From NCBI GenBank assembly GCA_027031685.1, contig JALVPS010000223.1, forward strand, positions 1 through 39,538: a stretch of DNA of 39,538 nucleotides. The letters run 5' to 3'. Positions within the stretch are counted from its first letter, which is position 1. Every line of letters begins with the position of its first letter. A program made the translations under genes and the position numbers. The stretch comes from Gammaproteobacteria bacterium. Lineage in GTDB: Bacteria > Pseudomonadota > Gammaproteobacteria > UWMA-0217. The notes below the pieces were generated by a model. That model was not told the origin of the DNA, made no database searches, and was given only the letters and a program-made list of their open reading frames with translations. Below are positions 2-38,683 of this stretch, one piece after another.

Positions 2-1180
2 GGCAGTGGCGCGGGTGGCAGTGGCATCGGGGGCGGCTCGACGATCAACACGCCGCCACGCGTGGATCTGGGCGCCGACCTGACCCGGCGGTCCGGGGCC
101 TATGTGTCGCTGCTGGCCGATGTGCAGGACGATCAGTCGCCATTCTCGCTCACCTACCACTGGGAGCAGGTGGACGGCCCGGCGGTGTCCGGCCTGGATG
201 ACGATGACTCTGAGCTGGCCGGTTTCACGCTGCCCAGGATCTTCAAGCGCGACAGCGGGCCGCAGACGGTGACCCTGCGCCTTACCGTCACTGATCCGGG
301 CGGGCTGTCCGCGTCGGACGAGATCACCATCACCATCGAGCCGGAGTCTTCCGCGCCGTACCGCGAGCGGGTGCAGGTGGGCGGCCCCATCACCCAGGAC
401 ACCACGTGGAGCGGAGACAAGATCTACGAAGCACAGGACAACATCTCCATTCCGGCCGGGGTGAAGCTGACCATCGAGGCCGGCGCCGTGGTGCGTCTGG
501 CCGATGGCAAGAAGCTGCTGGTGGACGGCGAGCTGGTGGCCAACGGGGTCATGAAAGACGGTGAGCCGATTCCGATCGTCTTCACCAACATCCCGGGCTC
601 GCTGGACCTGGACTGGGACGGCATCGAGGTCCGTTCCGGCGGGCATGCCGATCTGCTCCTCGTGGTCATCGAGAAGGCGCTGACCGGCCTGTACATGAAT
701 GGCGGCGGCGTCACCATGGGCAATGTGCTCTTTCAGAACAACATCGTTGGTTTTGATACCGGCGTGACGAAAAAGCAGGTGTCCATGGCCTACAACACCT
801 TCTACCAGAATTTCGAGGGCGTCGACGTTTACATGACCGGCACCAGCGTCATTCATCACAACCTGTTCAAGGGAAACGACTACGCCTTCTTCGAGCTGAG
901 CGGCAGCGACCAGCCGTTCGACGTGCACGACAACAACTTCGTGGACAATGGACATGTGATCACGGCGCGGGAGATCAATGACTTCTATCTGCCGGGGCAG
1001 GCGCGTTTGTACAACAACTGGTGGGGCACCACGGACATGACCGCCATCGAGCGGCTCATCACGGACGCCTACGACGACCCGCGGCTGATGGACATCTCGC
1101 CCACGCCGGCCAGCGCCTACATTCCCACCGCCTGGGCGGGCATCCCGGCCGGGTTCCAGTGGTACAACGACCTGCCATAG
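2..1180 (+). CDS. PKD-like Ig domain + right-handed parallel beta-helix repeat protein, 5' end cut by window edge
   Basis: The frame is open from base 2 (GSGAGGSGIGG..). PKD-like motif TLRLTVTDPGGLSASDEITITIE. It is followed by imperfect beta-helix-type repeats (NNIVGFDTG, NTFYQNFEG, HHNLFKGNDY, HDNNFVDNG). Stop TAG at 1178-1180. Confidence 0.55.
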   Translation, partial: GSGAGGSGIGGGSTINTPPRVDLGADLTRRSGAYVSLLADVQDDQSPFSLTYHWEQVDGPAVSGLDDDDSELAGFTLPRIFKRDSGPQTVTLRLTVTDPGGLSASDEITITIEPESSAPYRERVQVGGPITQDTTWSGDKIYEAQDNISIPAGVKLTIEAGAVVRLADGKKLLVDGELVANGVMKDGEPIPIVFTNIPGSLDLDWDGIEVRSGGHADLLLVVIEKALTGLYMNGGGVTMGNVLFQNNIVGFDTGVTKKQVSMAYNTFYQNFEGVDVYMTGTSVIHHNLFKGNDYAFFELSGSDQPFDVHDNNFVDNGHVITAREINDFYLPGQARLYNNWWGTTDMTAIERLITDAYDDPRLMDISPTPASAYIPTAWAGIPAGFQWYNDLP

Positions 1181-1362
1181 CCCACGGGCCAGGGATGGGG
1201 CAGACTGGTGACATGGGCAATGGGACAGGACAAGGGCGGCCGCAAGGCGCCGCCCCCGCCGCCACGGCCGCCGATCCCGCTGGGGCCGCCGCGGCCGGGC
1301 ACGGTGCGCCCGGTCGATCCGCCCCCGACACCGCCGCCACCCCCGCCGCCGAGGAGGCGCCC

Positions 1363-1866
1363 ATGACCGGCCCGGACCTGCGCTATCTCTGGCGCCGCCG
1401 CCACGAGGTGGTGCACCGGGCCGAGCTTTCTGTGCTCTACCACCGCGAGCGGGAGCGGCACTACGCCTTTCTCTCCAAGGCCACCACGGCCTTTGCCATC
1501 CTGGGCGGCAGCGCGGCCTTCGCCGCCGTGGCCAGCGAGCCCTGGCTGAAATGGGGCGGGCTGGCGGTGGCGGCCTCGTCCACGCTCTCGCTGGTGTTCG
1601 GCTGGGCGGACAAGGCCCGGCTGCATGCCGGCCTGGCCATGCGCTACAGCCTGCTGCTGGCGGACATCGAGGGCCGCGGGGAGCGTAACTTCACCGAGGC
1701 GGACGTGAACGCCTGGCTGGCGGAGATACACCGGCTGGAAGGGGAAGAACCGCCGGCGCGCCCGGCGCTGGTGCGGCTGTGCCAGAACCGGCTCAAACAG
1801 GCACAGGGGCGGGATGACGAGCTGCGCCCCGTGCCCCTGCTGCAACGCCTGCTGGCCCGGTGGTGA
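1363..1866 (+). CDS. two-TM membrane protein, SLATT-like architecture
   Basis: ATG 1363 preceded by GAGGAGG (1351-1357); 167 aa. Two adjacent hydrophobic helices (TTAFAILGGSAAFAAVA, WGGLAVAASSTLSLVFGW) are followed by a helical tail (HAGLAMRYSLLLADIE). The family call is from memory only. Confidence 0.5.
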   Translation: MTGPDLRYLWRRRHEVVHRAELSVLYHRERERHYAFLSKATTAFAILGGSAAFAAVASEPWLKWGGLAVAASSTLSLVFGWADKARLHAGLAMRYSLLLADIEGRGERNFTEADVNAWLAEIHRLEGEEPPARPALVRLCQNRLKQAQGRDDELRPVPLLQRLLARW

Positions 1867-8555: not shown

Positions 8556-9798
8556 GGCGGCCCGCCAGGACGACGCCACGGCGCGGGTGATGCTGCCGCG
8601 CTGGGTGGCGCCCTTCATGCGCCCGGCGCGCTACAAGATCGCCTACGGCGGGCGCGGCAGCGGCAAGTCGGTGAGCTTCGCCCGCCTGCTGCTGATGGCC
8701 GCGGCGGAGCGCCCGCTGCGCGTGCTGTGCGCCCGCGAGCTGCAGAACAGCATCGCCGACTCGGTGCACCAGCTGCTGGCGGACCAGATCCGGGCCATGG
8801 GCCTCGACGGCTGGTTCACGGTGCGCGAGAAGGACATCCTGGGACGCGCCGGCAGCCGCTTCCTGTTCAAGGGCCTGCGCGGCACCCGCAACGACGCCAG
8901 CCAGCTCAAGAGCCTGGAGGGCGTGGACATCTGCTGGATCGAGGAGGGGCAGACCGTGTCCAAGGCCAGCCTGGACACGCTGGTGCCCACCATCCGCAAG
9001 CCCGGCTCGGAGATCTGGATCAGCTTCAACCCGGATCAGGAGACGGACCCGGTGTACCAGCTGGCCCTGAACCCGCCCGAGGGGGCCGTGGTGCGCAAGG
9101 TGAACTGGGACGAAAATCCCTGGTTCCCGCCGGAGCTGGACGCGGAGCGGCGCCACATGCTGCGCACCGACCCGGACCTGTACGCCCACGTGTGGGAGGG
9201 CGAGTGCCGGCAGGTGACGGACGCCCAGGTGCTGCGCGGCAAGTGGCGCGTGGCGGACTGTCCGGACGCCATGCCGGACATGGACGGGCCCTACTACGGG
9301 GCGGACTTCGGCTTCGCGCGCGACCCCAGCACGCTCAACCGCTGCTACATCCACGGCAACACGCTGTACATCACCCACGAGGCGCACCGCCTGGGCTGCG
9401 AGGTGGTGGACCTGCCGGCCCTGTACGACACCGTGCCGGGCAGCCGCTCGCACACCATCCGCGCCGACTCGGCCCGGCCGGAGATCATCAGCCACCTGCG
9501 CCGCGAGGGGTTCCGCGTGACCGGCGTGGACAAGTGGCCCGGCTCGGTGGAGACCGGCGTCAACGTGCTGCGCAGCTTCGACGCCATTGTCATCCACTCC
9601 CGCTGCCGGCACACCATCGAGGAGGCGCGCCGCTACAGCTACAAGGTGGACCGCCTCACGGGCGACGTGCTGCCGCAGATCGTGGACGCCTGGAACCACC
9701 ACTGGGACGCCGTGCGCTACGCCCTCGCGCCCCTCATCCGCCGCCGCATGCGCACGTCCACCGGCATCGTCGGGCGCCGCCGGAGGACCATCGCGTGA
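8548..9798 (+). CDS. terminase large subunit (PBSX / Terminase_3-like)
   Basis: Walker A-like YGGRGSGKS and ARELQNSI motifs, followed by a C-terminal nuclease half. Overlaps TerS. Confidence 0.9.
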   Translation: MPEAARQDDATARVMLPRWVAPFMRPARYKIAYGGRGSGKSVSFARLLLMAAAERPLRVLCARELQNSIADSVHQLLADQIRAMGLDGWFTVREKDILGRAGSRFLFKGLRGTRNDASQLKSLEGVDICWIEEGQTVSKASLDTLVPTIRKPGSEIWISFNPDQETDPVYQLALNPPEGAVVRKVNWDENPWFPPELDAERRHMLRTDPDLYAHVWEGECRQVTDAQVLRGKWRVADCPDAMPDMDGPYYGADFGFARDPSTLNRCYIHGNTLYITHEAHRLGCEVVDLPALYDTVPGSRSHTIRADSARPEIISHLRREGFRVTGVDKWPGSVETGVNVLRSFDAIVIHSRCRHTIEEARRYSYKVDRLTGDVLPQIVDAWNHHWDAVRYALAPLIRRRMRTSTGIVGRRRRTIA

Positions 9799-10064
9799 GC
9801 GTCGGGCGCGATTCCATGCTGGACGAGATCGCCCTGGTCATCGGCCACGACGCCGCCCTGGCCCTGTGCCACGCCTTCGGCGGCCAGTACATCTACGTGC
9901 CGCAGGCCGGCCAGCGCCGCCTGCGCGACCGCGCCATCGCCCAGGCCCTGGCCGCCGGCGAGCCGGTGCGGCGGGTGGCGGCCCGCTACGGCGTCACCCA
10001 GCGGCACGCCCTGCGCATCGCCGCGCGCCACAAGTCACAAGCCCCCGAGGAGTCCACCCCATGA
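9795..10064 (+). CDS. Mor / C-family-like transcriptional activator
   Basis: FGGQYIYVPQ..RDRAI..RVAARYGVTQRHALRIA. GTGA overlap with the TerL stop; alternative ATG at 9816. Confidence 0.6.
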   Translation: MSVGRDSMLDEIALVIGHDAALALCHAFGGQYIYVPQAGQRRLRDRAIAQALAAGEPVRRVAARYGVTQRHALRIAARHKSQAPEESTP

Positions 10065-11600: not shown

Positions 11601-14114
11601 GTGGCCGAGCACCCGCCCTTCGACACCCACCGCGACGCCATCGAATGGGCCCGCGCCCGCCGCGTGGTGCTGCCCACCGAGTACTACGGCCTGCTGCAGC
11701 AGCGCGCCCGCGCCCAGGCCTTCGCCGTTGCCGGCCTGTCCGCCATCGACCAGGCCCAGCAGGTGCGCGACAGCCTCACCCGCGCCCTGGCCCGCGGCGA
11801 GACCTTCGCCGACTGGCAGGCCCGCGTCGAGCGCGGCGAGATCCCCCTCCACCTGCCGCGCCACCGCCTGGACAACATCTTCCGCACCAACCTGCAGGGC
11901 GCCTACATGGCCGGCCGCTGCCGCGCCATGCGCCGCCACGCCGAGGCGCGCCCCTACCTCATGTACTCCGCCATCAACGACAGCCGCACCCGCCCCGCGC
12001 ACCGCGCCATGCACGGCACCATCCTGCCCATCGACCACCCGTGGTGGGAGGAACATCTGCCGCCGAACGGGTTCCGGTGCTTTCTGCCCGGCACGCGCGT
12101 GCGCGGGAATTTCAGGGTGGGCCTAAAAGCCTTCTACGCGGGACGCGCCGTGGAAATAGTCACGGCGCAGGGTGCACGGCTGGCCGTCACCGCCAATCAC
12201 CCCATACTGACCCGGCAGGGCTGGGTGCGCGCGGACCAGGTCGCGGAAGGCGATGATCTTGTCCGCTATGGCGGCGAGGTCGGGGGTGCGTCTGCCGTGC
12301 CTGGGCAGGTAGACGACGAGCAGCCGCCACCCACGGTGGAAGAGGTCTTCGAGGTGCTCGCGGCGCAGCGACTTGGCCTCGCCGAGCCAGCGGCGTTCGA
12401 TCTCTACGGCGATGCGCAGTTCCTCGAAGGCGAGGTCTATGTTGCGGGTGCCGAGAGCGTACTGGTGCCGGGGGTGCGCCCCGCGTGCCCGCAGGGCGGC
12501 GAGGATGTCCAGCTCGACCGGCGAGACCATGCCCCCCACGCTGGCGCCATCGGCCTGAAAGGCCTGCACGCCGCGCGCCCTGGAGACGAGCTGCCGCCCG
12601 GAGAGGTCGAACCCGAGTTCGCGCAGACGCTTCTTGACGTAGGGCTTCGACACGCCCAGCGCATTGGCGATCTCCTGCGTCGTGTGGCCGGCCTCGAACA
12701 TCGACCCCATGGCGAAGTCGTGCCGGGCCAGTTTGCGCCCGCGGGCGGCCTCCCAGGCCTTGGCGCACTGCCTCTCGACCAGCGCCCGGTCCTGTTTGAT
12801 ACGCGCCCACTTGACCTTTTCCGCCGCGCTGCGACCGCGCACCTCCACCCCGTTGCGCAGGAGGAAGCCCTTCACGGCATTCCGGCTGACGCCGGCCGCC
12901 TCGGCGATGGCCTTGATGCTCATCCCGTCCTTGTAACTGGCGATGACGGCGGCCGGGTCCGCGGGCTGCCATCGTCTGTCCTTGACAGAGCGCGGCTCGA
13001 TACCCCGCTTGCGCAGGATGATGTGGAAGCTGCTGGTGCTGATCCCTCGCGCCTTGAGCAGATGGTGCATGACGGCGCCAGCGGTGTACTGCTCGACCAG
13101 GTAGTCGATGTCAGACGGTTCGAGTTTCGCGGCCATGTCTATGATTTCGAAACGGAAAACGGCCTGATCGTGGCCGAGGGCATCGTAACCCACAACTGTC
13201 GATGCACGGTAGTGCAACTATCCGAGGCCGAGGCCCGCCGGCGGGGTGTCACCACATCGCCGCCCGAGGCGTCACCCGATGACGGCTGGGACTACTCGGT
13301 GTGCCACCACGGCCCGGAGGAGGGCGTGGCGCGGGCGGCGGACGCGCGCGAGCGGGCCTGCGCCGATCTGGGCTTCGGGGCGCTGTTCGGGCTGCGCGGG
13401 CCGGAGGACGTGCTGGTGTGGTGCCACAACCAGCGGGTGCATGAGGCGGTTACCCGTCTGGCAGAGCGGGTGCGTGACTGGGACGACGATGAGGCCCTGG
13501 CGCGCGCGGCGCTGGGCGACGAGATCTGGGAGAAGCACTACAAGGCGGCGTCCGATCCAGAGATCACCCTCGATCTCAGTGTTCCGGAGCGGGTGGTGGT
13601 GCGCGCCTATACGGACTATCAGATCGACGTCTGGCCGCTCATGAACCGCCTGGCCCGCGAGCTGCCGCACGACCGGCGTCTGCCGGGCTTCACCGACGAG
13701 GAGCTGTTCCGGGCCGGCCTGCTGATCTACCTGATGGACCGGGCTATTGCCAAGCTGCCGACCATCGAGGACGAGTTCCGGCGCGGGGTGAAGCCGGAAG
13801 GGCTGGGCGCCCGCCGCACGGCCTACGTGAAATCGCACACGCATCGCGGGCGCATCGTCTCCTGGGAGGGCTATACTTCCATCATGGCTGGCAAGCCGTT
13901 CGAGGGCAGCATTCAGTTCATCATCGAGGCGAAACGCGCCGTGGACCTGGGGCCGCTGTCGGTGCAAAAGAAACCGGAATTGGTGCTGCCGAGAGGCACG
14001 AAGATCAGGATATTGGATTACGAGCGCTTTGACGGGTATCTGAGAATAGAAGCCGAGGAGGTGGAGCATGAAAGGCCCATCAGAGGAGAGCATCGTTTCG
14101 GCATTGAAGCGTGA
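11601..14114 (+). CDS. MuF / SPP1-gp7-type head morphogenesis protein interrupted by an intein, with an ADP-ribosyltransferase-like C-terminal domain
   Basis: GTG 11601 after GGCAGGAGG. MuF motifs SAINDSRTRPAHRAMHG and PPNGFR|CRCT, the latter split by 373 codons. C-terminal motifs YTDYQ..MNRLAR, FRRG, GYTS, PELVLPRGTKIRI. Confidence 0.8.
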   Translation: MAEHPPFDTHRDAIEWARARRVVLPTEYYGLLQQRARAQAFAVAGLSAIDQAQQVRDSLTRALARGETFADWQARVERGEIPLHLPRHRLDNIFRTNLQGAYMAGRCRAMRRHAEARPYLMYSAINDSRTRPAHRAMHGTILPIDHPWWEEHLPPNGFRCFLPGTRVRGNFRVGLKAFYAGRAVEIVTAQGARLAVTANHPILTRQGWVRADQVAEGDDLVRYGGEVGGASAVPGQVDDEQPPPTVEEVFEVLAAQRLGLAEPAAFDLYGDAQFLEGEVYVAGAESVLVPGVRPACPQGGEDVQLDRRDHAPHAGAIGLKGLHAARPGDELPPGEVEPEFAQTLLDVGLRHAQRIGDLLRRVAGLEHRPHGEVVPGQFAPAGGLPGLGALPLDQRPVLFDTRPLDLFRRAATAHLHPVAQEEALHGIPADAGRLGDGLDAHPVLVTGDDGGRVRGLPSSVLDRARLDTPLAQDDVEAAGADPSRLEQMVHDGASGVLLDQVVDVRRFEFRGHVYDFETENGLIVAEGIVTHNCRCTVVQLSEAEARRRGVTTSPPEASPDDGWDYSVCHHGPEEGVARAADARERACADLGFGALFGLRGPEDVLVWCHNQRVHEAVTRLAERVRDWDDDEALARAALGDEIWEKHYKAASDPEITLDLSVPERVVVRAYTDYQIDVWPLMNRLARELPHDRRLPGFTDEELFRAGLLIYLMDRAIAKLPTIEDEFRRGVKPEGLGARRTAYVKSHTHRGRIVSWEGYTSIMAGKPFEGSIQFIIEAKRAVDLGPLSVQKKPELVLPRGTKIRILDYERFDGYLRIEAEEVEHERPIRGEHRFGIEA
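12078..13196 (+). mobile_element. intein (Hint domain; Cys1 ... His-Asn / Cys+1)
   Basis: Block A CFLPGTRV, block B LAVTANHPILT, blocks F/G GHVYDFETENGLIVAEGIVTHN, followed by CRCT. Confidence 0.75.
12123..13136 (-). CDS. homing-endonuclease-like protein (3 HTH modules + Vsr/DUF559-like PD-(D/E)xK core), antisense inside the intein
   Basis: The - ORF has normal amino-acid composition, while the + frame opposite it looks like an antisense shadow. Motifs MSIKAIAEAAGVSRNAVKGFL, TTQEIANALGVSKPYVKKRL, NIDLAF..IAVEIERRW..GWRLLVVYL. The start is uncertain (ATG 13136, GTG 13193 or TTG 13217). Confidence 0.6.
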   Translation of the reverse strand: MAAKLEPSDIDYLVEQYTAGAVMHHLLKARGISTSSFHIILRKRGIEPRSVKDRRWQPADPAAVIASYKDGMSIKAIAEAAGVSRNAVKGFLLRNGVEVRGRSAAEKVKWARIKQDRALVERQCAKAWEAARGRKLARHDFAMGSMFEAGHTTQEIANALGVSKPYVKKRLRELGFDLSGRQLVSRARGVQAFQADGASVGGMVSPVELDILAALRARGAHPRHQYALGTRNIDLAFEELRIAVEIERRWLGEAKSLRREHLEDLFHRGWRLLVVYLPRHGRRTPDLAAIADKIIAFRDLVRAHPALPGQYGVIGGDGQPCTLRRDYFHGASRVEGF

Positions 14115-14864: not shown

Positions 14865-14896
14865 GGGTGACATTTGTCACCTGTAAAATGTCACCT
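14865..14896 (+). repeat. 32-nt element GGGTGACATTTGTCACCTGTAAAATGTCACCT, copy 1
   Basis: Identical to 35297-35328. Lies between a terminator and the protease/scaffold gene. Confidence 0.95.
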
Positions 14897-14918
14897 CCCG
14901 TGGGCCACCCTGCGGCCC

Positions 14919-30226: not shown

Positions 30227-33200
30227 ATGGCACTGATCGCCCGCTGGCAGTTCGACGAGGGCAGCGGCACCACGGCCGCCGGCAGCGCCGGCAGCGAGCC
30301 GGCCTGCTCGCTCATCGGCAGCGTCGGCTGGACCGCCGGCAAGTTCGGCCAGGCCATCCACGTGCCGCAGGACAGCGGCGCCCGTGGCGAGGTGGCGCAG
30401 TGGACCGGCTTCCAGAGCGCGCAGACGACGTTCTCCTACGCCGCATGGGTCAAGATGGACACCTGGACCGGCTCGCCCATCCTGGCCGTGGTGTCCGTGC
30501 CGTATGCCGCTGGCGACTGGCGGCGGGCCTTCCAGATCAGGGTGGCCCATTGGGACGGCACCATCATGGTGACGCTCTACGACGGGTCCAGCCATCAAAT
30601 CTTCGGCGGCAAGGCCATCAACGACGGTCAGTGGCACCATGTGGCCGTCACCTATGACGGCAGCACGGCGAAGCTGTACGTGGACGGCGACCCAGATGGC
30701 AGCATGGCCCTGTCGGGCTTTTCCGCGCCCTACACCGGCGAGGCCATCCAGGTGGCCGGCGACCGCAACGGCGCCAGCGACAGCCTGGCCGGCGCCCTGG
30801 ACGACCTGCGCATCTACGACCACGCCCTGAGCCAGAGCGAGATCCAGGGCCTGCTCAACCCCGTCACCGTGCTGGCCGGCGCCGATGCCACCCTGGGCCT
30901 CGACGCCACCGCCGGGGCCGTGGCCGTGCGCCACCAGCTGGCCGCCGTCTCCGCCGCCGCCGACACCACCGCCGGCGTGGGCGGGCTGGGGCAGCGCCAT
31001 GAGCTGGCCGGCCCGTCCGCCGCCGCCGACCTGACCGCCACCAGCGGCGCCCTCGTGCAGCGCCAGCGGCTCGCCGGCGCGGGCGCCACTGGCGACACCG
31101 GCGCCACCACCGGCCTGCTGCAACAGCTGCAGCGCCTGGCCGCGGCGGCCGCCGTGGCCAGCGCCCTCACCATGCCCGCCGCCGCCCTCACGCAGCGGCA
31201 CGGCCTGGCCGACGGCGCCCCCATCGTGCCCACCGCCGCCAGCGTGGCCGGTCTCGGCCAGCGGCACGAACTGGTGGGATTGGCCGCCGCCGCCGCCACC
31301 GAGGCCCCCGGCGCGGCCCTCACCCAACGGCACGCCCTGGGCGGGGCTGGCGTGGTGGTGGATGGCGCGGCCAACGGGGGCGCCCTGGGGCAGCGGCACG
31401 GGCTGGTGGGATGTGACGTCCTGGTATACAGCAACGCTGACTCGCAAGTCTGGCCGCTGACCATCGATGGGCAGACCAGCGGCGCGCAGCTTGGGTATAG
31501 ATGGATTATAGGTGACCTCATTGAGGTGCCGGACATCTCGCGCTCCTACCGGCTATCGGCCCTGTTGCGCCAGCGCACAGCGCCGGGGGCCGACCCCGAT
31601 TCCGATCCGCGCCACTATGCGGGTTTCTCCTGCTATGACGCTGATGTAAAAAGCATTTTTCCGCGTAATTTCTACATCCCAAACCCGGCCACCATGACCC
31701 GACTGGCGCAGCCGCTCGATTATGGCGACACCGAGATCGTGCTGGAGAGCACCGCCGGGTGGTCCACCGATATGCACTTCTTCTTTGCCGCCTATGGCTA
31801 CACCGACGGTCAGGGGCGCACCTATCCCGATTGGTACTACACCCGAGACCTCTTCTATTTGTTCAACCGGGCGAGCATTGACGGCAACCGCCTGGTTCTC
31901 TCCAAGCCGTGGTTGGGTCCACGCAAGCCGGCCGGCACGGCGGTGGCCAATACGCGGAATGCCAGTACCTACAACTATGTTCTGCGCGCATATAAGACGT
32001 TGCCGAGTGATTGGCGCCGATACGAGGCGCTTATCAAAGGGGAGCAGCCGTCAGTGCACGGGGTCTACTTCATCAATTTCCGCCCTGCCACACGCTTTGT
32101 ATCGCCCGTGTTGGGCGTTAATTACTGGGGCCCGCATACCATCGTCGAGTGGGACGGATGGGAGCTGGCTTCCGACGGCCCGCTCGCCCAACGCCATGGC
32201 CTGGCCGCCCCTTATGCCACCCTCGACACCGCCGCCGACCCCGGCCCGCTGGCCCAGTCCCATGCCCTGGCCGCGCCGGGGGCGGTGGCCGACCTGCAGG
32301 CGGACGCCGGCGCCATTCCCGTCCAGACCCATGTGCTGGCCCCGGCGGGGGTGTCCGCGCCCCTGCTGGCCGATGGCGGCGCGCTGGGGCAGCGCCACGG
32401 CCTGGCCGCCCTGTTCGCCGTGCTCACGGTGGCGGCGGACGGCGGCGGCGTCACGCCCACCCACGCCCTGGTGGGCGGCCCGCTCACCCTGAGCCTGGAT
32501 GCGGACACGGGCGCCCTGCGCCAGCACCAGCGCCTGGCCGGCGAGAACGCCACCATCGGCCTCTACCCCTGGCGCGAGGGGCTGGGCCAGACCCACGTGC
32601 TGGCCCCCGCGGCCCTGGCCGCCGACGGGGCGGCGGACGGCGGCCCGCTCGGCCAGCCGCTGCCGCTGGCGGGTGTCGGCGGCGAGCTGGCCACGGCCGC
32701 CGATGCCGGCCCGGCGCGGCAGGATCACGCCCTGGCCGCCACCGGCCCGACCGTGGAGGCCACCGCCACCGCCGACGGGCTGGGCCAGCGCCACGCCTTC
32801 GCCGGCGCGGGCGCCCAGGCCGGCAGCGACGCCACGGCCGGCCCCCTGGGCCAGCGCCATGCCCTGCAGGATGGCGGGGCCGTCACCACGCCCCAGGCCA
32901 CCACCGGCGCCGTCCTGCCCACCCACGTGCTGGCCCCCTGGCCCATGGTGGTGGAGACCGGCTCCCTCAATCCCGAGCTGATCGAGCACCACCTGCTGGC
33001 CGCCCTGCCGGCGGAGACGGCCACGGTGGTGCCCGGCCTGCGCCTCACCCAGCGCCACCCCCTGGCCGGGGCCGGGGCCGAGCTGCCCCTGCAGGCCGAC
33101 AGCGCCCCGCTCAGCCAGCGCCAGCGGCTCGCCGCCAGCCCGGCCGTGGTGGACACCGCGGCCGATGGGGGTGCGCTGGGGCAGGCCCACCGCCTGGCCG

Positions 33201-35302
33201 GGGCGGATGCGCGCGCCGACGCCGTGCACCCCCTGCCGGCCCTCACGCAGCGCCACGGCCTGGCGGGGCAGGGCGCGGCGAGCACGCCCGAGGCCGCCGC
33301 CGGGGCGCTGGTGCAGACCCACGTGCCCGCCCCGCACGCCCTGCGCGTGACCCCCGAGGCCACGGGCGGCGCACTGGTACAGTCCCACGCCCTGGCGGGC
33401 GGTGCGCTGGCCGCCGGCCTCACCGTGGCCGATGGCGCACTGGCCCTGCGCCACCTGCTGGCCGGCGTGTGGGCCGCGCTGGATGCCGCAGCCGGGCAGG
33501 GCGGGCTCACCCAGCGGCACGCCCTGGCCGGCCTATCCGTGATCTTCGAGACAGAGATCCCGGGCAGCCGCATCCATATCGGCTATCCCCTCAAGTCCGA
33601 CGGCTGGCAGGTGGACACCGCCGCCGACACGGGCCCGCTGGCGCCCGTGCACGCCCTGGCCGCCCAGGCCGTGGCCGCCACCGTCGAGGCGGCCGGCGGG
33701 GCGCTGGTGCAGCACCACGGCCTGCAGGGCCTCCCCGCCGCGGCAGACAACGGCGTCGGCACCGGGGCCCTCGTCCAGACCCACCCGCTGGCCGCCACCG
33801 GCGCCACCGCCGAGGGCCTGGCCGACGCCGGCCCCGTCACCCCCGTGCACGCCCTGGCCGGGGCCGCCGCCAGCGCCGGGACCGCGGCCGATGCCGGGCC
33901 GCTCGGCCAGCGCCACCACCCCGCCGCCCCCGGCGCCGCCGCGGACGCCCTGGCCGATGCCGGCCCGCTGGGCCAGCGCCACGCCCTGCAGCCGGCCCCG
34001 GCCGGGGTGGACCTGCGCCCGGACACCGGCGCCCTCAGCGCCCTGCACCGCCTGCAGGGGGCGGACGCCGCCAGCGCCACCGTCCTGCCGCGCCCGGCGC
34101 TCATCCAGCGGCACGGCCTGGCCGGCACCGGCGCGACGGCGGACACCGCGGCCGCCACCGGCCCCCTCGATCAGCGCCATGCCATCGCCCTCGCCGCCGC
34201 CACCAGCGACACCACGGCCGACGCCGCCCCCGTGGGCCAGCGCCACCGGCTCACCGCCATCGGCGGCAACACCGACCTGCGCGCCGACACCGCCCACCTG
34301 GGCCAGCACCACCGCCTGACCGGGCAGGACGCCGCCGCGCCCCTCATTGCCGTGGCCGACCGCCTGCGCCAGCACCACCCGCTGGCCGGTCTCGATGCCG
34401 CCGTGGACAGCGCCGCCGACGCTGGCGCCCTGACCCCCGAGCATCGCCTGGCCGCCCCCGGCGCCAGCGTGGACAGCACCGCACCGGCCGCCGCCCTCGT
34501 CCAGACTCACCCGCTGGCGGCGGCGGGCGCCACGGTCGAGGCCATCGCCGACGCGGCCCCCCTCGTGCAGCGCCACGCCCTGCGGGACGACGGCCTGACG
34601 GTGGATGCCCCCGCCGCCGCCGGTGCCGCCATCCAGCGCCACGAACTGGCCGGCGCGCCGTCGGTCACCGACCTGGCCGCCGATGCCGTTGCCCTCGTCC
34701 AGCGCCACGATCTGGCCGCCCCGGCCGCCGACACCGCCCTGCAGGCCGCCGCCGGTGCCCTCGTCCAGCACCACCCCCTGGCCGCCGCCGGGGCAGAGGC
34801 AGACAGCGCCGCCGCCACCGGCGCCCTGGTGCAACACCAGGTGCTGGCTGCCGCCGCCGTCGAGACGCGCCTGCAGGCCGCCGCCGGCCCCGTCACGCCG
34901 CGCCACCTGCTGGGCGGCGCGCCGGTCGCCACCGGGCTGGCCGCCGGCCTCGGCCCCCTCGTGCAGCACCAGATGCTGGCCGGCGCGGAGGCCGCCAGCG
35001 AGGCCGTCGCCACCGCCGCCCGCCTCGTCCAGCGCCACCTCGCGGACGGGCAGGGCGCCGTCATCGAGGCCGCCATGCCCGGCCTGCCCATCGCCCAGCG
35101 GCAGACCCTGGCCGCCCCCGGCGCGCAGGCCGACACGGCCGCCGCCACGGGCGCCCTGGTGCAGGACCATCACCTGGTAGATGCCGGGCTGGAAGTCGCC
35201 CTGGAAGTGAGCATCATCGGCTTCGAGCTCAACACCGACGTGCTCAGCGTGGAAGTCGTCACCGCCCGCAAATGGGTGGTGCCGGACCGGCGGCGGGGGT
35301 GA
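30227..35302 (+). CDS. giant tail fibre-like protein: LamG-like lectin domain, about 50 Q-x-H-x-L-A repeats, central globular domain
   Basis: N-terminus WQFDEGSG..WHHVAVTYDGSTAKLYVDGD..LDDLRIYDHALSQSEIQGL (Laminin_G_3 pattern), then a 21-22-aa periodic repeat. Confidence 0.75.
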   Translation: MALIARWQFDEGSGTTAAGSAGSEPACSLIGSVGWTAGKFGQAIHVPQDSGARGEVAQWTGFQSAQTTFSYAAWVKMDTWTGSPILAVVSVPYAAGDWRRAFQIRVAHWDGTIMVTLYDGSSHQIFGGKAINDGQWHHVAVTYDGSTAKLYVDGDPDGSMALSGFSAPYTGEAIQVAGDRNGASDSLAGALDDLRIYDHALSQSEIQGLLNPVTVLAGADATLGLDATAGAVAVRHQLAAVSAAADTTAGVGGLGQRHELAGPSAAADLTATSGALVQRQRLAGAGATGDTGATTGLLQQLQRLAAAAAVASALTMPAAALTQRHGLADGAPIVPTAASVAGLGQRHELVGLAAAAATEAPGAALTQRHALGGAGVVVDGAANGGALGQRHGLVGCDVLVYSNADSQVWPLTIDGQTSGAQLGYRWIIGDLIEVPDISRSYRLSALLRQRTAPGADPDSDPRHYAGFSCYDADVKSIFPRNFYIPNPATMTRLAQPLDYGDTEIVLESTAGWSTDMHFFFAAYGYTDGQGRTYPDWYYTRDLFYLFNRASIDGNRLVLSKPWLGPRKPAGTAVANTRNASTYNYVLRAYKTLPSDWRRYEALIKGEQPSVHGVYFINFRPATRFVSPVLGVNYWGPHTIVEWDGWELASDGPLAQRHGLAAPYATLDTAADPGPLAQSHALAAPGAVADLQADAGAIPVQTHVLAPAGVSAPLLADGGALGQRHGLAALFAVLTVAADGGGVTPTHALVGGPLTLSLDADTGALRQHQRLAGENATIGLYPWREGLGQTHVLAPAALAADGAADGGPLGQPLPLAGVGGELATAADAGPARQDHALAATGPTVEATATADGLGQRHAFAGAGAQAGSDATAGPLGQRHALQDGGAVTTPQATTGAVLPTHVLAPWPMVVETGSLNPELIEHHLLAALPAETATVVPGLRLTQRHPLAGAGAELPLQADSAPLSQRQRLAASPAVVDTAADGGALGQAHRLAGADARADAVHPLPALTQRHGLAGQGAASTPEAAAGALVQTHVPAPHALRVTPEATGGALVQSHALAGGALAAGLTVADGALALRHLLAGVWAALDAAAGQGGLTQRHALAGLSVIFETEIPGSRIHIGYPLKSDGWQVDTAADTGPLAPVHALAAQAVAATVEAAGGALVQHHGLQGLPAAADNGVGTGALVQTHPLAATGATAEGLADAGPVTPVHALAGAAASAGTAADAGPLGQRHHPAAPGAAADALADAGPLGQRHALQPAPAGVDLRPDTGALSALHRLQGADAASATVLPRPALIQRHGLAGTGATADTAAATGPLDQRHAIALAAATSDTTADAAPVGQRHRLTAIGGNTDLRADTAHLGQHHRLTGQDAAAPLIAVADRLRQHHPLAGLDAAVDSAADAGALTPEHRLAAPGASVDSTAPAAALVQTHPLAAAGATVEAIADAAPLVQRHALRDDGLTVDAPAAAGAAIQRHELAGAPSVTDLAADAVALVQRHDLAAPAADTALQAAAGALVQHHPLAAAGAEADSAAATGALVQHQVLAAAAVETRLQAAAGPVTPRHLLGGAPVATGLAAGLGPLVQHQMLAGAEAASEAVATAARLVQRHLADGQGAVIEAAMPGLPIAQRQTLAAPGAQADTAAATGALVQDHHLVDAGLEVALEVSIIGFELNTDVLSVEVVTARKWVVPDRRRG

Positions 35303-35328
35303 CATTTGTCACCTGTAAAATGTCACCT
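35297..35328 (+). repeat. 32-nt element GGGTGACATTTGTCACCTGTAAAATGTCACCT, copy 2
   Basis: Identical to 14865-14896. Contains the fibre gene stop (35300-35302). Confidence 0.95.
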
Positions 35329-35384
35329 GCGCCGCCCGATCATCGGGTCTCCAGACTACCGACCGCCCCTTGGAGACCCGACCC

Positions 35385-35768
35385 ATGGCAAAGGCATACA
35401 ACGCAGTCGTCTACGACAACGGCCTGAACTACTTCAAGAACAACTGTGACAAGATCATCGTCACCGACGGCGTGCCCAACATCAACGACTACGCCGCCAC
35501 CGTCGGCATGAAGGCCGCCGAGGCCGACGTGACCCCGGCCACCTTCACCATCGCCGCCAACGGCGCCGGCCGCAAGATCAGCCACGGCGCGGTGGACGGC
35601 ACCGTCACCGCCTCCACCAGCGGCAACAACGACCTGCACATCGCCTACCTCGACACCACCAACAGCACCGTGCTGGCCATCACCGACGAGACCACCAACC
35701 AGCCGCTCACGGCCGGCAACCCCGTCACCTTCCCGCCCATCGAGTACAAGTTCAACGCGCCCGTCTAG
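35385..35768 (+). CDS. hypothetical late protein (127 aa)
   Basis: ATG 35385 lies 9 nt after GGAG; coding-like composition. Confidence 0.6.
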   Translation: MAKAYNAVVYDNGLNYFKNNCDKIIVTDGVPNINDYAATVGMKAAEADVTPATFTIAANGAGRKISHGAVDGTVTASTSGNNDLHIAYLDTTNSTVLAITDETTNQPLTAGNPVTFPPIEYKFNAPV

Positions 35769-35818
35769 TTCTCCCGCCAATAGTCGGCGGGAGTGGATTG
35801 AAACAACGCGCCCGTCTA
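35753..35818. repeat. 15-nt perfect direct repeat CAACGCGCCCGTCTA flanking the CRISPR-like unit
   Basis: Copies at 35753-35767 and 35804-35818. Both encode NAPV plus the start of a stop codon. Confidence 0.9.
35768..35804 (+). CRISPR. solitary CRISPR-repeat-like unit, type I-C-like (no array, no cas)
   Basis: GTTCTCCCGCCAATAGTCGGCGGGAGTGGATTGAAAC: an 8-bp stem, a 7-nt loop and the tail TGGATTGAAAC, as in canonical I-C repeats (recalled from memory). Confidence 0.5.
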
Positions 35819-35901
35819 AGGCGCCCAGGCCCCCGCCCACCCGGGCGGGGCCGTCCCGCCCGGTAGCGGCATCAGACCCGACACGAGGGGATTGAGACAC
35901 C

Positions 35902-36237
35902 ATGCTGCGCGACACCGAGATCTACTACCTGGGCCGGGACGACGTACTCGAATGGCGCCTGCACGGCGAGGCCGGCCCCTTCCCCGAATCCTTCTACCAG
36001 GGCATCACCCGCTGCGTCCTGCACATCGGCGATGCCGCCACCCTCGACAGCCGCGACAACCCCCTGGCCATCACCTGGGGCACCGGCAACAGCCTCCAGC
36101 TCCGCCTCAAGCACGCCAAGAACCTCACCCCCGGCCGCCACCAGGCCCGCCTCATCGTCTACACCTGGGCCGAGCCAGACGGGCTGGAAGACTGGCGGCA
36201 ACTGCCGTGGATCGTCGTGCGGGAGTCGGGGGAGTAG
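35902..36237 (+). CDS. hypothetical protein (111 aa)
   Basis: ATG 35902 after GAGGGGA. Confidence 0.6.
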   Translation: MLRDTEIYYLGRDDVLEWRLHGEAGPFPESFYQGITRCVLHIGDAATLDSRDNPLAITWGTGNSLQLRLKHAKNLTPGRHQARLIVYTWAEPDGLEDWRQLPWIVVRESGE

Positions 36238-36243
36238 GGAGGG

Positions 36244-36286
36244 CACAAAAAACCCCCGCGACGCGGGCAACGTCCGGGGGCCGTGG
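36244..36286 (-). terminator. GC hairpin with T-run on the - strand, copy B
   Basis: AAAAAA-CCCCCG-c-GACG-CGGGCAA-CGTC-CGGGGG. On the - strand it reads as hairpin + TTTTTT. Confidence 0.5.
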
Positions 36287-36314
36287 CAACCACCAACGCA
36301 CTCTTGGTGATCAC

Positions 36315-36452
36315 GTGAAGAAGTATAGCAAGGCATTGAAAGAATTGAGGCGACTCCTAGAACACATGCCCGCCTGGCGTTTCATCCTGCTCCTGCTGCC
36401 GCCCATCCTGTGGGCCGCGGCACAGCTCATCCGCGCCGTGCGCTGGTGGTGA
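36315..36452 (+). CDS. small membrane peptide, KYSKAL family (45 aa)
   Basis: GTG 36315; VKKYSKALKELRRLLEHMPAWRFILLLLPPILWAAAQLIRAVRWW. Confidence 0.5.
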   Translation: MKKYSKALKELRRLLEHMPAWRFILLLLPPILWAAAQLIRAVRWW

Positions 36453-36460
36453 CGGGCTGA

Positions 36461-36501
36461 ACAAAAAACCCCCGCGACGGGGCAACGTCCGGGGGCCGTG
36501 G
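36461..36501 (-). terminator. GC hairpin with T-run on the - strand, copy C (near-identical to copy B)
   Basis: ACAAAAAACCCCCGCGACGGGGCAACGTCCGGGGGCCGTGG. Confidence 0.5.
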
Positions 36502-36528
36502 TCGATCACTGGACAGGGCAGTGATTAC

Positions 36529-36675
36529 ATGGTTGATCTTAAGCATGTGACGAGCATCCTGCAAATGCTCCACGAATCCAAACCGCTCCGCCGGCTCGCC
36601 TGGGGCCTGCTGACCGTGCTCGTCTACTGGCGCCTGCCCGAACTGCTGCGCGCCGTGGCGGAGATCGTCAGGTGA
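36529..36675 (+). CDS. small membrane peptide, WRLPE family (48 aa)
   Basis: MVDLKHVTSILQMLHESKPLRRLAWGLLTVLVYWRLPELLRAVAEIVR. Confidence 0.45.
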   Translation: MVDLKHVTSILQMLHESKPLRRLAWGLLTVLVYWRLPELLRAVAEIVR

Positions 36676-36685
36676 GGAGGCGCCC

Positions 36686-37771
36686 CTACGCCGCCGCCTT
36701 CCCGTGCGACTCCCCGCACAGCGGGCAGGGCAGCCCCTGAACCACCAGCGCCTCGCGCAACCAGTCCGGCCGCTCCGGCAGCCGCCCCTTCATCTCCTTG
36801 CGCCACCTGCGTGCCACCGCCGGCGTCCACGGCAGACCCGCGCCGATCACCTCCCGGTTGATGAACTCCCGCAGCTCCGCGCGGAAGGCCAGGAAATTGG
36901 AGAGATCCTCCCTGATCCGCTCCAGCTCCTCCTCGATCACCGGCAGGTGCGCCGTCGTCAGCTCCGCCAGCGAGCGCACCCGGCACAGCACCCGCAGCCG
37001 GTTCGCCACGTGCTCGCGCGCCCCGCCCTGGCTGCCCAGCCCGGCCACCGCCGCCGCCATCGCGTGCGCCAGCTCCTCCCGCTGCCGGAACGAAAGCGGC
37101 TCGCCACCGGCCGCCTCCGGCGCGGGCGCCGCCACGGACCGCCCGCCCTCGCCGGCCGGGATGTACTCCCCCTCCAGCACCACCTTCTCCAGCAGCTCCC
37201 CGGCCACCGCCATCGCCTGCGGAATCTGATCCGGCGTCAGCTGCTCCAGACTCTCGATACCCAGGCGCAGATTCACAATCGCATGCGCCTCGTCGTAGCC
37301 CAGCTTGCGCCCACGCGCCTCGGCCACCTTCACCACCCGGCGGATGGCCTTCACCAGCGGCTCGCGCTGCGCCTTCGTGGCGTGGGGGAGGGGCTTGGGG
37401 GGTTCCTCCGGCTGGGCTTTCTTCACCACCTGGCCGTTCCAGTAGCGCCAGAGCACCTCATCGCACTCGTCCTGGTAGCGCTCCAGCTTCTCGCGCACCT
37501 CCGGCTTGACCTTGGCCGGACTGATGGACATGAGCCAGCCGGGGAGCTTGCGCAGGGGGAGGCAGAGCATCTCGCGTTTCTTGCCGTCCTGGGCAACCGT
37601 TGGCATAAGCCAACACTTCCAACGAGGCTCCTTGAGCTTGGTGGATTGTCGTCCCCAGTCTATGCCCAGCGCGTCGCAGATCGGCCGGGCCGGGGTGTAA
37701 GGCTCGTGGTTGTGCTCGACGAGATAGAGGGTGTCGTCGTGGAAGGTGACGGGGATAAGGGATTGGTTCAT
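36686..37771 (-). CDS. phage antirepressor (P22 Ant N-terminal domain type)
   Basis: ATG 37771 after AGGAGA. LIPVTFHDDTLYLV..PICDALGIDW..LCLPLRKLPGWLMSISPAKV. Confidence 0.75.
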   Translation of the reverse strand: MNQSLIPVTFHDDTLYLVEHNHEPYTPARPICDALGIDWGRQSTKLKEPRWKCWLMPTVAQDGKKREMLCLPLRKLPGWLMSISPAKVKPEVREKLERYQDECDEVLWRYWNGQVVKKAQPEEPPKPLPHATKAQREPLVKAIRRVVKVAEARGRKLGYDEAHAIVNLRLGIESLEQLTPDQIPQAMAVAGELLEKVVLEGEYIPAGEGGRSVAAPAPEAAGGEPLSFRQREELAHAMAAAVAGLGSQGGAREHVANRLRVLCRVRSLAELTTAHLPVIEEELERIREDLSNFLAFRAELREFINREVIGAGLPWTPAVARRWRKEMKGRLPERPDWLREALVVQGLPCPLCGESHGKAAA

Positions 37772-37912
37772 GTCGGTTCTCCTGGCTTGAGGTTCGAGAA
37801 CCGCCACGCCTTTCCTGCCAGCAAAAGGGTGGCGGAGTGCGCGGGTTGGCAGACCGGGCCAGGGACCGGCGGGCCTTGCGGCCCCCCACGCACCCCACCA
37901 TTAAACGGGCAC

Positions 37913-38077: not shown

Positions 38078-38257
38078 ATGAATTCGAAGCAGTTCAAACG
38101 CTGGCTGGAGAAACAAGGGGCCACCTTCGAGCAGGGCAAGGGCTCGCATCTCAAGGTGTACCTGAACGGCCGGCAGTCTGTGCTGCCGATGCACGGCAAG
38201 CAGGAACTGGGCAAAGGGCTGGTAGCGGCCATCAAGCGCCAGCTCGGACTGAAATGA
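38078..38257 (+). CDS. hicA: HicA mRNA interferase toxin
   Basis: MNSKQFKRWLEKQGATFEQGKGSHLKVYLNGRQSVLPMHGKQELGKGLVAAIKRQLGL. Confidence 0.85.
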   Translation: MNSKQFKRWLEKQGATFEQGKGSHLKVYLNGRQSVLPMHGKQELGKGLVAAIKRQLGLK

Positions 38258-38266
38258 GGTGGAACG

Positions 38267-38683
38267 ATGGACTTTGAATATCCTGTTGAACTGACCCGTG
38301 ACGGGGACACCTGGCTGGTGACCTTTCCCGATGTGCCGGAGGCCATCACCTTTGGCGCGGACAAGGACGAGGCGCTGCTGCAGGCCAAGGACGCGCTGGC
38401 GACGGCATTGTCGATGTACGTGGACAGCCGGCGCGACCTGCCTGAACCGAGCCCGGCGAAGGGCAGGCCGACGGTACGGCCCGACGCACTGGACTGCGCA
38501 AAGCTGGGCATCTACGCGGCCATGCGCGAACAGGGGCTGCGCAAGGCCGACCTGGCGCGGCTGCTGAACTGGCACATGCCGCAGGTAGATCGCCTGCTGG
38601 ATCTCAATCATGCCTCGCGTCTCTCGCAAATCGAGCAGGCTGCTGCCGCGTTGGGCAAGCATGTGGAGTTGCGGGTGGCATAG
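38267..38683 (+). CDS. hicB: HicB antitoxin with a C-terminal HTH
   Basis: YPVELTRDGDTWLVTFPDVPEAITFGADKDEALLQAKDAL plus an HTH-like C-terminus (KADLARLLNWHMPQVDRLLD). Confidence 0.85.
   Translation: MDFEYPVELTRDGDTWLVTFPDVPEAITFGADKDEALLQAKDALATALSMYVDSRRDLPEPSPAKGRPTVRPDALDCAKLGIYAAMREQGLRKADLARLLNWHMPQVDRLLDLNHASRLSQIEQAAAALGKHVELRVA

Follow-up and report, generated by a model that had tools for sequence, protein, structure and literature searches.

A solitary CRISPR repeat, very probably of type I-C, added to the end of a late gene in a temperate phage

The contig JALVPS010000223.1 of a Gammaproteobacteria bacterium (assembly GCA_027031685.1), analysed here from position 1 to 39,538 and referred to as the window, represents the 39.5-kb genome of a temperate tailed phage with 69% GC. 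Between two conserved and co-oriented late genes, the open reading frames (ORFs) 35385-35768 and 35902-36237, it harbors a single 37-nt repeat that resembles the repeats of clustered regularly interspaced short palindromic repeat (CRISPR) arrays. Based on its sequence and on the arrays that share it, this element is almost certainly a solitary repeat of type I-C, and comparison to relatives indicates that it was recently added, together with a 14-mer, to the end of the upstream gene. Our preferred, tentative reading, which we place a little short of an even chance, is that of a recently captured solitary repeat that would be co-transcribed with its neighbours and act as a decoy similar to the RNA anti-CRISPRs (Racr). 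Viruses are known to carry thousands of solitary CRISPR repeats, and for one of type I-C an ability to block immunity has been demonstrated.

The repeat belongs to a subfamily found beside type I-C cas genes

The repeat GTTCTCCCGCCAATAGTCGGCGGGAGTGGATTGAAAC starts with GTT, continues with an 8-bp stem (35771-35778 paired with 35786-35793) enclosing the 7-nt loop AATAGTC (35779-35785) and ends with the 11-nt tail TGGATTGAAAC (35794-35804), which is single-stranded in the fold. Its first G is at the same time the final base of the TAG stop codon (35766-35768) of ORF 35385-35768. The hairpin is seen alike in the minimum free energy and the centroid folds and, as is characteristic of type I-C, the stem-loop is followed by an 11-nt tail with the end ATTGAAAC. 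The Rfam family CRISPR-DR9 aligns to exactly the 37 nt of the unit, with 24.7 bits and an E-value of 0.009, which is under the gathering score of the family. We employed a covariance model (R1) made from 12 distinct array repeats, with the phage window left out of the training. R1 matches the unit with 53.4 bits (E = 1.9e-13) and spans model positions 1-37; with filters off, this is the sole significant plus-strand match in the whole window. At 29 of the 30 positions that are fixed in its subfamily the unit has the majority form, at the remaining one it has a known variant, and its length is equal to that of the subfamily repeat.

To find arrays with this repeat, one genome per GTDB species was scanned for the 3′ 19-mer GGCGGGAGTGGATTGAAAC. 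This yielded 22 loci, 11 of which are regular arrays of 37-nt repeats with a period of ~71 nt, originating from Deinococcus, Tepidicella, a spirochaete metagenome-assembled genome (MAG) and several proteobacterial MAGs. Adjoining these arrays, genes for Cas5c, Cas8c/Csd1, Cas7/Csd2, Cas4, Cas1c and Cas2 lie on the same strand as the repeat orientation (L016: Cas5c, Cas8c, Cas7, Cas4 and Cas1c; L012: Cas8c and Cas7; L028: Cas1c; L048: Cas4, Cas1c and Cas2), and all of them score above the curated cut-offs with the sole exception of a truncated Cas4. Since cas genes of this type adjoin the arrays, we assign the repeat to type I-C and reject an origin from a type I-G or type III system, which the 37-nt length and the CRISPR-DR9 match had suggested. 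High-GC phage DNA is rich in GC hairpins, with another one following at 35831-35850, and an ordinary intergenic hairpin or terminator might resemble a CRISPR repeat by chance. The equal length and the agreement at the fixed positions speak against this explanation, and the R1 score together with the exact 19-mer in arrays adjoining type I-C cas genes refutes it, leaving it a negligible probability.

An initial annotation made from the DNA letters had described a 37-nt repeat with this stem, loop and tail and had taken it for a solitary type I-C-like repeat in a phage region without cas genes. The sequence, the fold and R1 bear out its structure, the cas genes beside the arrays its type and the single significant plus-strand match its solitary occurrence in the phage. 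Likewise, no cas gene was found among the 31 window ORFs scanned, and the ORFs with matches contain phage or generic domains.

A 51-bp piece was recently added to the end of the upstream gene

The repeat is bracketed by an exact 15-mer direct repeat at 35753-35767 and 35804-35818, which, minus the C that it shares with the unit, corresponds to the two copies of a 14-mer listed in Table 1. In the relatives that lack the repeat, L034, L056 and L030, the two genes are only 12-15 nt apart: L034 reads NAPV-TAA, 15 nt and ATG, L056 reads TTCAACGCGCCGGTATAA-ACCGGCGCCCGC-ATG, and L030 possesses a 12-nt gap. Because the gene ends with NAPV-TAA in both L056 and L034 and is followed in L056 by GGCGCCC, which the phage shares, the second 14-mer copy followed by TAA and GGCGCCC is, by this sequence comparison, the native gene end. 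Hence, judging from the relatives without the unit, a 51-bp piece consisting of the 14-mer and the repeat was added at the end of the 127-aa gene. The protein was left intact by this insertion, as the frame is kept and the stop codon is rebuilt from TA and the G of the repeat. Both the perfect 15-nt flanking repeat and the 51-bp insertion had been proposed in the initial annotation and withstand the comparison. The other ~75 nt of the 133-nt intergenic region, including the hairpin at 35831-35850, are missing from the relatives as well and are lineage-specific. In L034, the homologue of the 127-aa gene (1162-1545, plus strand) is broken by an in-frame stop (TGA at ~1375) with only a 71-aa product called, and may be a pseudogene or reflect a sequencing error.

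Seven contigs are 97-100% identical to the window, and 7/7 carry the unit. The 181-nt aligned region around it contains two single-nucleotide polymorphisms (SNPs), of which only one, C4 to T, is located inside the repeat, where pairing is retained as G-U. Since the duplication is still perfect and the carriers are this similar, the insertion is recent on the evidence of these sequences.

Arrays of the same subfamily link the repeat to bacteria that met the phage family

Metagenomes were scanned for the closest subfamily with the pattern GTTYTCCCGCC-N7-GGCGGGAGYGGATTGAAAC, and 21 loci with the subfamily repeat GTTCTCCCGCC-N7-GGCGGGAGYGGATTGAAAC were obtained. Most of these loci are derived from sample Ga0256832, which also contains a unit-carrying contig (L002, the same as L055), and in this sample the array repeats and the phage unit are the same except for the 7-nt loop and position 27. 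L048, the closest array, follows cas4-cas1c-cas2 and has a repeat identical to the unit at 33/37 positions; its flank has a phage-like GC content of up to 0.71. The comparison of the 37-mer with CRISPR repeats, suggested by the initial annotation, thus leads to arrays of the same subfamily in the same metagenome. An IS630-family transposase is encoded between cas2 and the CRISPR leader of L048 (2141-3178, minus strand).

Among 629 unique spacers, spacer 4 of L048 is the only one with a full-length match to the phage, pairing at 30/35 positions with a protospacer in the portal gene that is flanked by a 5′-TTC protospacer-adjacent motif (PAM), while shuffled windows reached a maximum of 29/37. 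Three of the five mismatches fall on third codon positions. Since this match carries the TTC PAM, bacteria with this repeat subfamily have, on sequence evidence, met the phage family. The spacers of the related arrays are 31-38 nt long (one 41), with a mode of 34-35.

Single repeats also occur elsewhere in the collected loci. L046 (1500-1536, minus strand) and L025 (21-200, plus strand) represent the same chromosomal locus with a homologous downstream flank, and possess one and three repeats, respectively, the array of L046 having collapsed to one orphan repeat; the terminal repeat of both is a T27 variant, with the same base as the phage unit. The unrelated viral contig L007 (IMGVR_UViG_3300044802_000032) contains a solitary I-C-like repeat, TTTCTCCCTCCGACTTCCGGCGGGAGTGGATTGAAAC, at 2345-2381 on the minus strand, located after a T-run and 23 nt ahead of a GTG start codon. 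Solitary full-length repeats of the same I-C family as the phage unit are further present in the bacterial MAG contigs L009 (1549-1585, plus strand), L008 (893-929, plus strand) and L017 (216-252, minus strand), and the one in L009 is directly followed by a hairpin and a T-run in a Racr-like layout. None of the four solitary repeats in L007, L008, L009 and L017 (0/4) shows a flanking duplication.

The junction of repeat and phage sequence resembles that of an array

A feature absent from the initial annotation is the Phe codon TTC ahead of the duplicated segment, which is kept in the relatives L030, L034 and L056. TTC is the established type I-C PAM (PMC8406640). At the phage junction GAAAC-AACGCGCCCG, the 3′ end of the repeat abuts exactly the base that comes after TTC in the native copy. 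In a type I-C array, a spacer obtained from a TTC-flanked protospacer starts at the base after TTC, directly past the ...GAAAC of the upstream repeat, and a spacer in L048 shows an arrangement identical to that of the phage junction. The chance that an arbitrary duplication begins just behind TT(C) is only ~1 in 16 to 30.

From this geometry and its rarity by chance we infer an origin from a host array, a proposal that we consider evenly balanced on the sequences at hand. A host type I-C array would have acquired a spacer, GGATTGAAACAACGCGCCCGTCTAAGG, from the TTC-flanked site at the gene end, the repeat-spacer junction would have recombined back into the phage via the homology between spacer and protospacer, and a second, illegitimate join would have been made after base 14. 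A sibling phage without the repeat would then be expected to read TTCAACGCGCCCGTCTAAGGCGCCCAGG contiguously. To our knowledge, it is not documented how phages acquire solitary repeats. As the junctions are still readable here, and repeat-less relatives and arrays from the same sample are available for comparison, the unit offers a clean case for asking if recombination with host arrays gives rise to solitary repeats.

The downstream sequence contains no second repeat

The initial annotation had seen a second, degenerate tail at 35885-35898 and had considered a mini-array. R1 detects no second repeat at this position, and a search for GGATTGAAAC with at most one mismatch returned two sites compared to 0.7 expected, a result matched by 16 of 100 shuffles and hence within chance. 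Rather than a second repeat, the tail-like stretch GAGGGGATTGAGAC most likely represents the site of ribosome binding for the next gene; the relatives retain GGAT 11-14 nt ahead of the ATG. At window scale, a weak minus-strand match to CRISPR-DR8 at 35866-35898, for which a 1.5-kb search gave E = 0.082, lacks significance.

The hairpin that had been noted at 35831-35850 is present both in the sequence and in the fold. It starts 26 nt after the repeat and may form an RNA 3′ end or act as a stabiliser. Although it matches the stem of the Tepidicella repeat at 18/20 positions, we reject it as a degenerate second repeat, as the resemblance is confined to the GC stem and its likeness to type I-C stems is not significant (R1, E = 8.4 at 35832-35849; Rfam, E = 6.7). 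Viral mini-arrays contain at least two repeats around a spacer of normal length, which would be 33-36 nt here. Since neither R1 nor the shuffle test supports a second repeat, the mini-array option fails. The spacer-like sequence that follows the repeat found no match in ~320 kb of collected loci except for the 14-nt self-match.

Possible functions of the repeat

Since the repeat is placed in sense orientation between two late genes, it would be transcribed together with them, and read-through from the 127-aa gene across the repeat is likely on the basis of the gene arrangement. During type I-C processing, Cas5c cuts at the 3′ base of the repeat stem and leaves an 11-nt handle. Host Cas5c would bind the hairpin of the phage repeat and cut after G35793, which would release two RNAs: the upstream one would end with the repeat hairpin, and in the downstream one the tail of the repeat, UGGAUUGAAAC, would become the 5′ handle of a CRISPR RNA (crRNA). 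Both products would mimic crRNA ends, the former the 3′ and the latter the 5′ end, and would compete with host crRNAs for Cas5c and Cas7. On the DNA level, the insertion would part the TTC PAM from the full native protospacer, and a host spacer against this site would fail. The 14-nt self-match should be harmless because type I-C interference in Xanthomonas requires a match of at least 27 bp next to TTC (PMC8406640). There are precedents for such a decoy: 2,103 viral solitary repeat units (SRUs) are known, 83% of which match the host subtype, RacrIC1 is located 11 nt past the protein gene acrIC5, is co-transcribed with it and inhibits type I-C, and for RacrIF1 a decoy mechanism by uptake of Cas proteins was shown (PMC10651486). 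That the repeat RNA has a real anti-CRISPR effect is conceivable, and we are inclined to doubt it slightly more than we believe it.

Several observations weigh against a decoy of this kind. No sigma-70-type promoter was detected in 35000-36700, and Racr RNAs often have a promoter just upstream. The unit resides in the late structural operon, where an inhibitor would be made late and be of limited use, and it has no acr gene as neighbour but follows a structural-looking protein, acr genes being enriched near Racr although not obligatory. Position 27, the first base of the handle, is T in the unit, whereas the co-occurring arrays have C, and no sampled array shares the loop AATAGTC. Moreover, the proposed protospacer (35754-35839) finds no match among the 629 unique spacers, and the argument for the origin is one of geometry at the junction, for which the likelihood ratio is roughly 16-30. 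With carriers 97-100% identical and a perfect duplication, there is also no sign of selection on the repeat. Because the unit lies between conserved late genes, beside a tail-like neighbour and with no sigma-70 promoter, the context argues against a dedicated Racr gene.

The same context would fit a passive recombination scar, perhaps fixed as an escape on the DNA level that moved the PAM off the protospacer, with an RNA that has no useful role. A scar would explain a recent insertion between two core late genes with neither a promoter nor an Acr neighbour, and its junction geometry is consistent with capture from an array; the other solitary repeats examined lack a flanking duplication, which suggests a one-off event. 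However, a synonymous change of TTC to TTT would be a far easier way of escape, both hairpin and handle are intact with the lone SNP in the repeat keeping a G-U pair, and a sense repeat within a transcription unit would be made into RNA in any type I-C host. We regard the scar as the main rival explanation, although a rather unlikely one. The unit also provides a test case for the question whether type I-C immunity is already weakened by the mere presence of a repeat in a late transcript.

The order of PAM, insertion and target would also be expected of an element that produces a guide. In this case, the handle and the native sequence from 35805 onward would load host Cascade and direct Cascade-Cas3 against siblings without the insertion, the carrier being spared with the repeat in PAM position. 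As a result, either siblings would be excluded or the insertion would undergo homing. It would agree with this that the second 14-mer copy is native sequence, that the 14-nt self-match is below the 27 bp needed for interference and that the spacers of viral mini-arrays mostly target related viruses (PMC11656645). On the other hand, no downstream repeat sets the 3′ end, neither IMG/VR nor the contigs with the neighbouring genes contain a sibling with the contiguous target, and the known relatives mismatch the guide at positions 9 and 12 and diverge past position 15, all of which renders a guide improbable. More improbable still is a minimal selfish element, i.e. a natural RNA-guided homing device that has no nuclease gene of its own and is run on the type I-C Cascade-Cas3 of the host. 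If it were true, the insertion would, upon co-infection, exclude siblings or be copied into them by repair.

Finally, the unit could be a viral crRNA-like regulator (Cracr), whose spacer-like part would pair in part with the promoter of a host cas or toxin gene or with the TTC-flanked 14-mer of the phage, so that Cascade would bind there without cleavage and repress transcription. In Cracr elements, which include type I-C cases, a single repeat-like unit is combined with a short spacer and a terminator (bioRxiv 10.1101/2024.10.29.618823). We searched the ~320 kb of collected loci, which contain several type I-C cas loci, for TTC followed by 8 or more nt from the start of the spacer-like sequence; a Cracr would call for a host cas or creT promoter with 9 or more PAM-proximal matches. 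The 14 PAM-proximal matches to the TTC-flanked site and the hairpin 26 nt after the repeat are in line with such a regulator, but the only PAM-flanked partial target in these loci is the phage's own duplication, which the insertion explains. We consider a Cracr very improbable.

The phage genome and the genes around the repeat

The window encodes a CI-like repressor, a DnaC/IstB-like ATPase, RusA, a large terminase, a Mu-type portal, a MuF protein, a capsid E protein, a tail tube, a tape measure, a 1691-aa fibre and a P22-type antirepressor. Megablast of 35300-36300 against 50,697 phage records gave no match, and the best tblastn match of the portal protein shows 34% identity. In IMG/VR, relatives of the two small proteins encoded beside the repeat are absent, as are copies of the spacer-like sequence and repeats of the subfamily of the phage unit. 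The features are compiled in Table 1.

Table 1. Features in and around the solitary repeat of the phage window
Feature	Position	Strand	Basis or remark
Solitary CRISPR repeat unit GTTCTCCCGCCAATAGTCGGCGGGAGTGGATTGAAAC, assigned to type I-C	35768-35804	+	R1 covariance model, Rfam CRISPR-DR9, likeness to L048 array
14-mer AACGCGCCCGTCTA, first copy	35754-35767	+	Preserves C-terminal NAPV of the 127-aa protein
14-mer AACGCGCCCGTCTA, second copy	35805-35818	+	Directly 3′ of the repeat
TTC (Phe codon), type I-C PAM sequence	35751-35753	+	Directly 5′ of the first 14-mer copy
Spacer-like position after the repeat	35805-35839	+	Second 14-mer copy, TAA stop (35817-35819), then GGCGCCC...
GC-rich hairpin CCCCGCCC-ACCC-GGGCGGGG, 8 bp, without U-tract	35831-35850	+	Fold
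Tail-like sequence GAGGGGATTGAGAC	35885-35898	+	Overlaps ribosome-binding region of the 111-aa gene
127-aa late gene, small tail-associated protein	35385-35768	+	ORF list; AlphaFold2 (AF2) model, predicted local distance difference test (pLDDT) 86; Foldseek
111-aa conserved late gene	35902-36237	+	In relatives 12-15 nt past the 127-aa gene
Conserved 31-nt element GTGACATTTGTCACCTGTAAAATGTCACCTG, candidate regulated late promoter/operator	35299-35329	+	Second copy at 14867-14897
Protospacer in portal gene	10528-10494; 5′-TTC PAM 10531-10529	-	L048 spacer 4, 30/35

Neither the 127-aa nor the 111-aa protein has a match in Pfam, PHROGs or NCBIfam. The model of the 127-aa protein matches small minor-tail, tail-fibre and connector proteins of phages in Foldseek, and its gene comes after the tail-fibre gene in the relatives. 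With these minor-tail-like matches, the structure search points away from an anti-CRISPR protein as the neighbour.

The 31-nt element is located 56 nt ahead of the 127-aa gene and contains the palindrome GTGACA-TT-TGTCAC and a TG..TAAAAT motif. Its second copy (14867-14897, plus strand), with one mismatch (GTGACATTTGTCACCTGTAAAATGTCACCTG/C), precedes the head-protease gene, with 0 copies expected by chance, and a related element is located ahead of the 127-aa gene homologue in L056 (about 2810-2842). The element probably marks late promoters, as a regulated promoter or operator, which would place transcription of the repeat together with the late genes. Between the genes for terminase and portal, a Mor-family transcription-activator domain (Pfam PF08765, E = 4e-8) occupies ~9819-10040 on the plus strand, in the same frame as ORF 8727-10064; it is a candidate activator of the 31-nt element. 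The portal ORF is listed from 9587, and its true start is probably further downstream.

The MuF-like head protein (837 aa; 11601-14114, plus strand) shows a weak Intein_splicing match at residues 180-532 (E = 8e-7, under the Pfam cut-off) and may contain an intein. The 1691-aa tail-fibre-like protein (30227-35302, plus strand) carries a Laminin_G_3 (concanavalin-like) domain at its N-terminus, together with dozens of repeats of ~20 aa that follow the pattern ...GALxQRHxLAG..., with a local GC content of up to 0.81; it is mostly in this region that the relatives vary, L003 having 96.9% identity with 12 gaps. The P22-type antirepressor gene ant (36686-37807, minus strand) is encoded on the strand opposite to the late genes, and a HicA/HicB toxin-antitoxin pair, whose annotation was transferred from the identical contig L001, follows past the late genes at 38078-38683 on the plus strand. 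Together, this stretch represents a typical accessory region.

Comparison with known systems

Guide-RNA homing of IS200/IS605 elements by TnpB was reportedly described by Meers et al. in 2023. By analogy only, the unit shares with it that the insertion parts a motif from a target-turned-guide and that only empty sites would be cut; it differs in having no nuclease, in its reliance on host Cascade-Cas3 and in showing no sign of mobility. With Cracr elements the unit has in common one repeat-like unit, a spacer-like stretch, a hairpin and a PAM-flanked 14-nt partial match. In contrast to them, however, its repeat is perfect rather than degenerate and its sole known partial target is its own duplication, no host cas or toxin promoter target of the Cracr type being present in the ~320 kb of collected loci. 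As in viral mini-arrays (PMC11656645), a repeat of host type is followed by a potential guide against related viruses, yet the unit has one repeat only, and its 'spacer' is the adjacent sequence of the phage itself and not foreign.

The proposed origin can be compared to spacer-protospacer recombination between phages and CRISPR loci, which Varble et al. are said to have described in 2019 (Nat Microbiol) together with CRISPR locus transduction in staphylococci. Recombination of this kind would account for a repeat that stands in register with PAM-adjacent phage sequence. In that work, CRISPR loci were transduced, whereas here a stable single-repeat scar would have been left in a phage late operon.

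The closest counterparts of the unit are RacrIC1 and the viral SRUs, of which Faure et al. reportedly provided the first catalogue in 2019. The unit is likewise a single phage repeat with neither cas genes nor a second repeat, it is of type I-C and thereby of the subtype of the likely hosts, and, as is the case for RacrIC1, it directly follows a protein gene on the same strand. It differs from them in that it has no acr neighbour and no promoter of its own, is embedded between conserved late structural genes, overlaps a stop codon, is accompanied by a PAM-adjacent 14-nt duplication and belongs to the 37-nt class of type I-C repeats. The unit thus adds a case to the known viral SRUs and Racr candidates, with an insertion history that is unusually legible.

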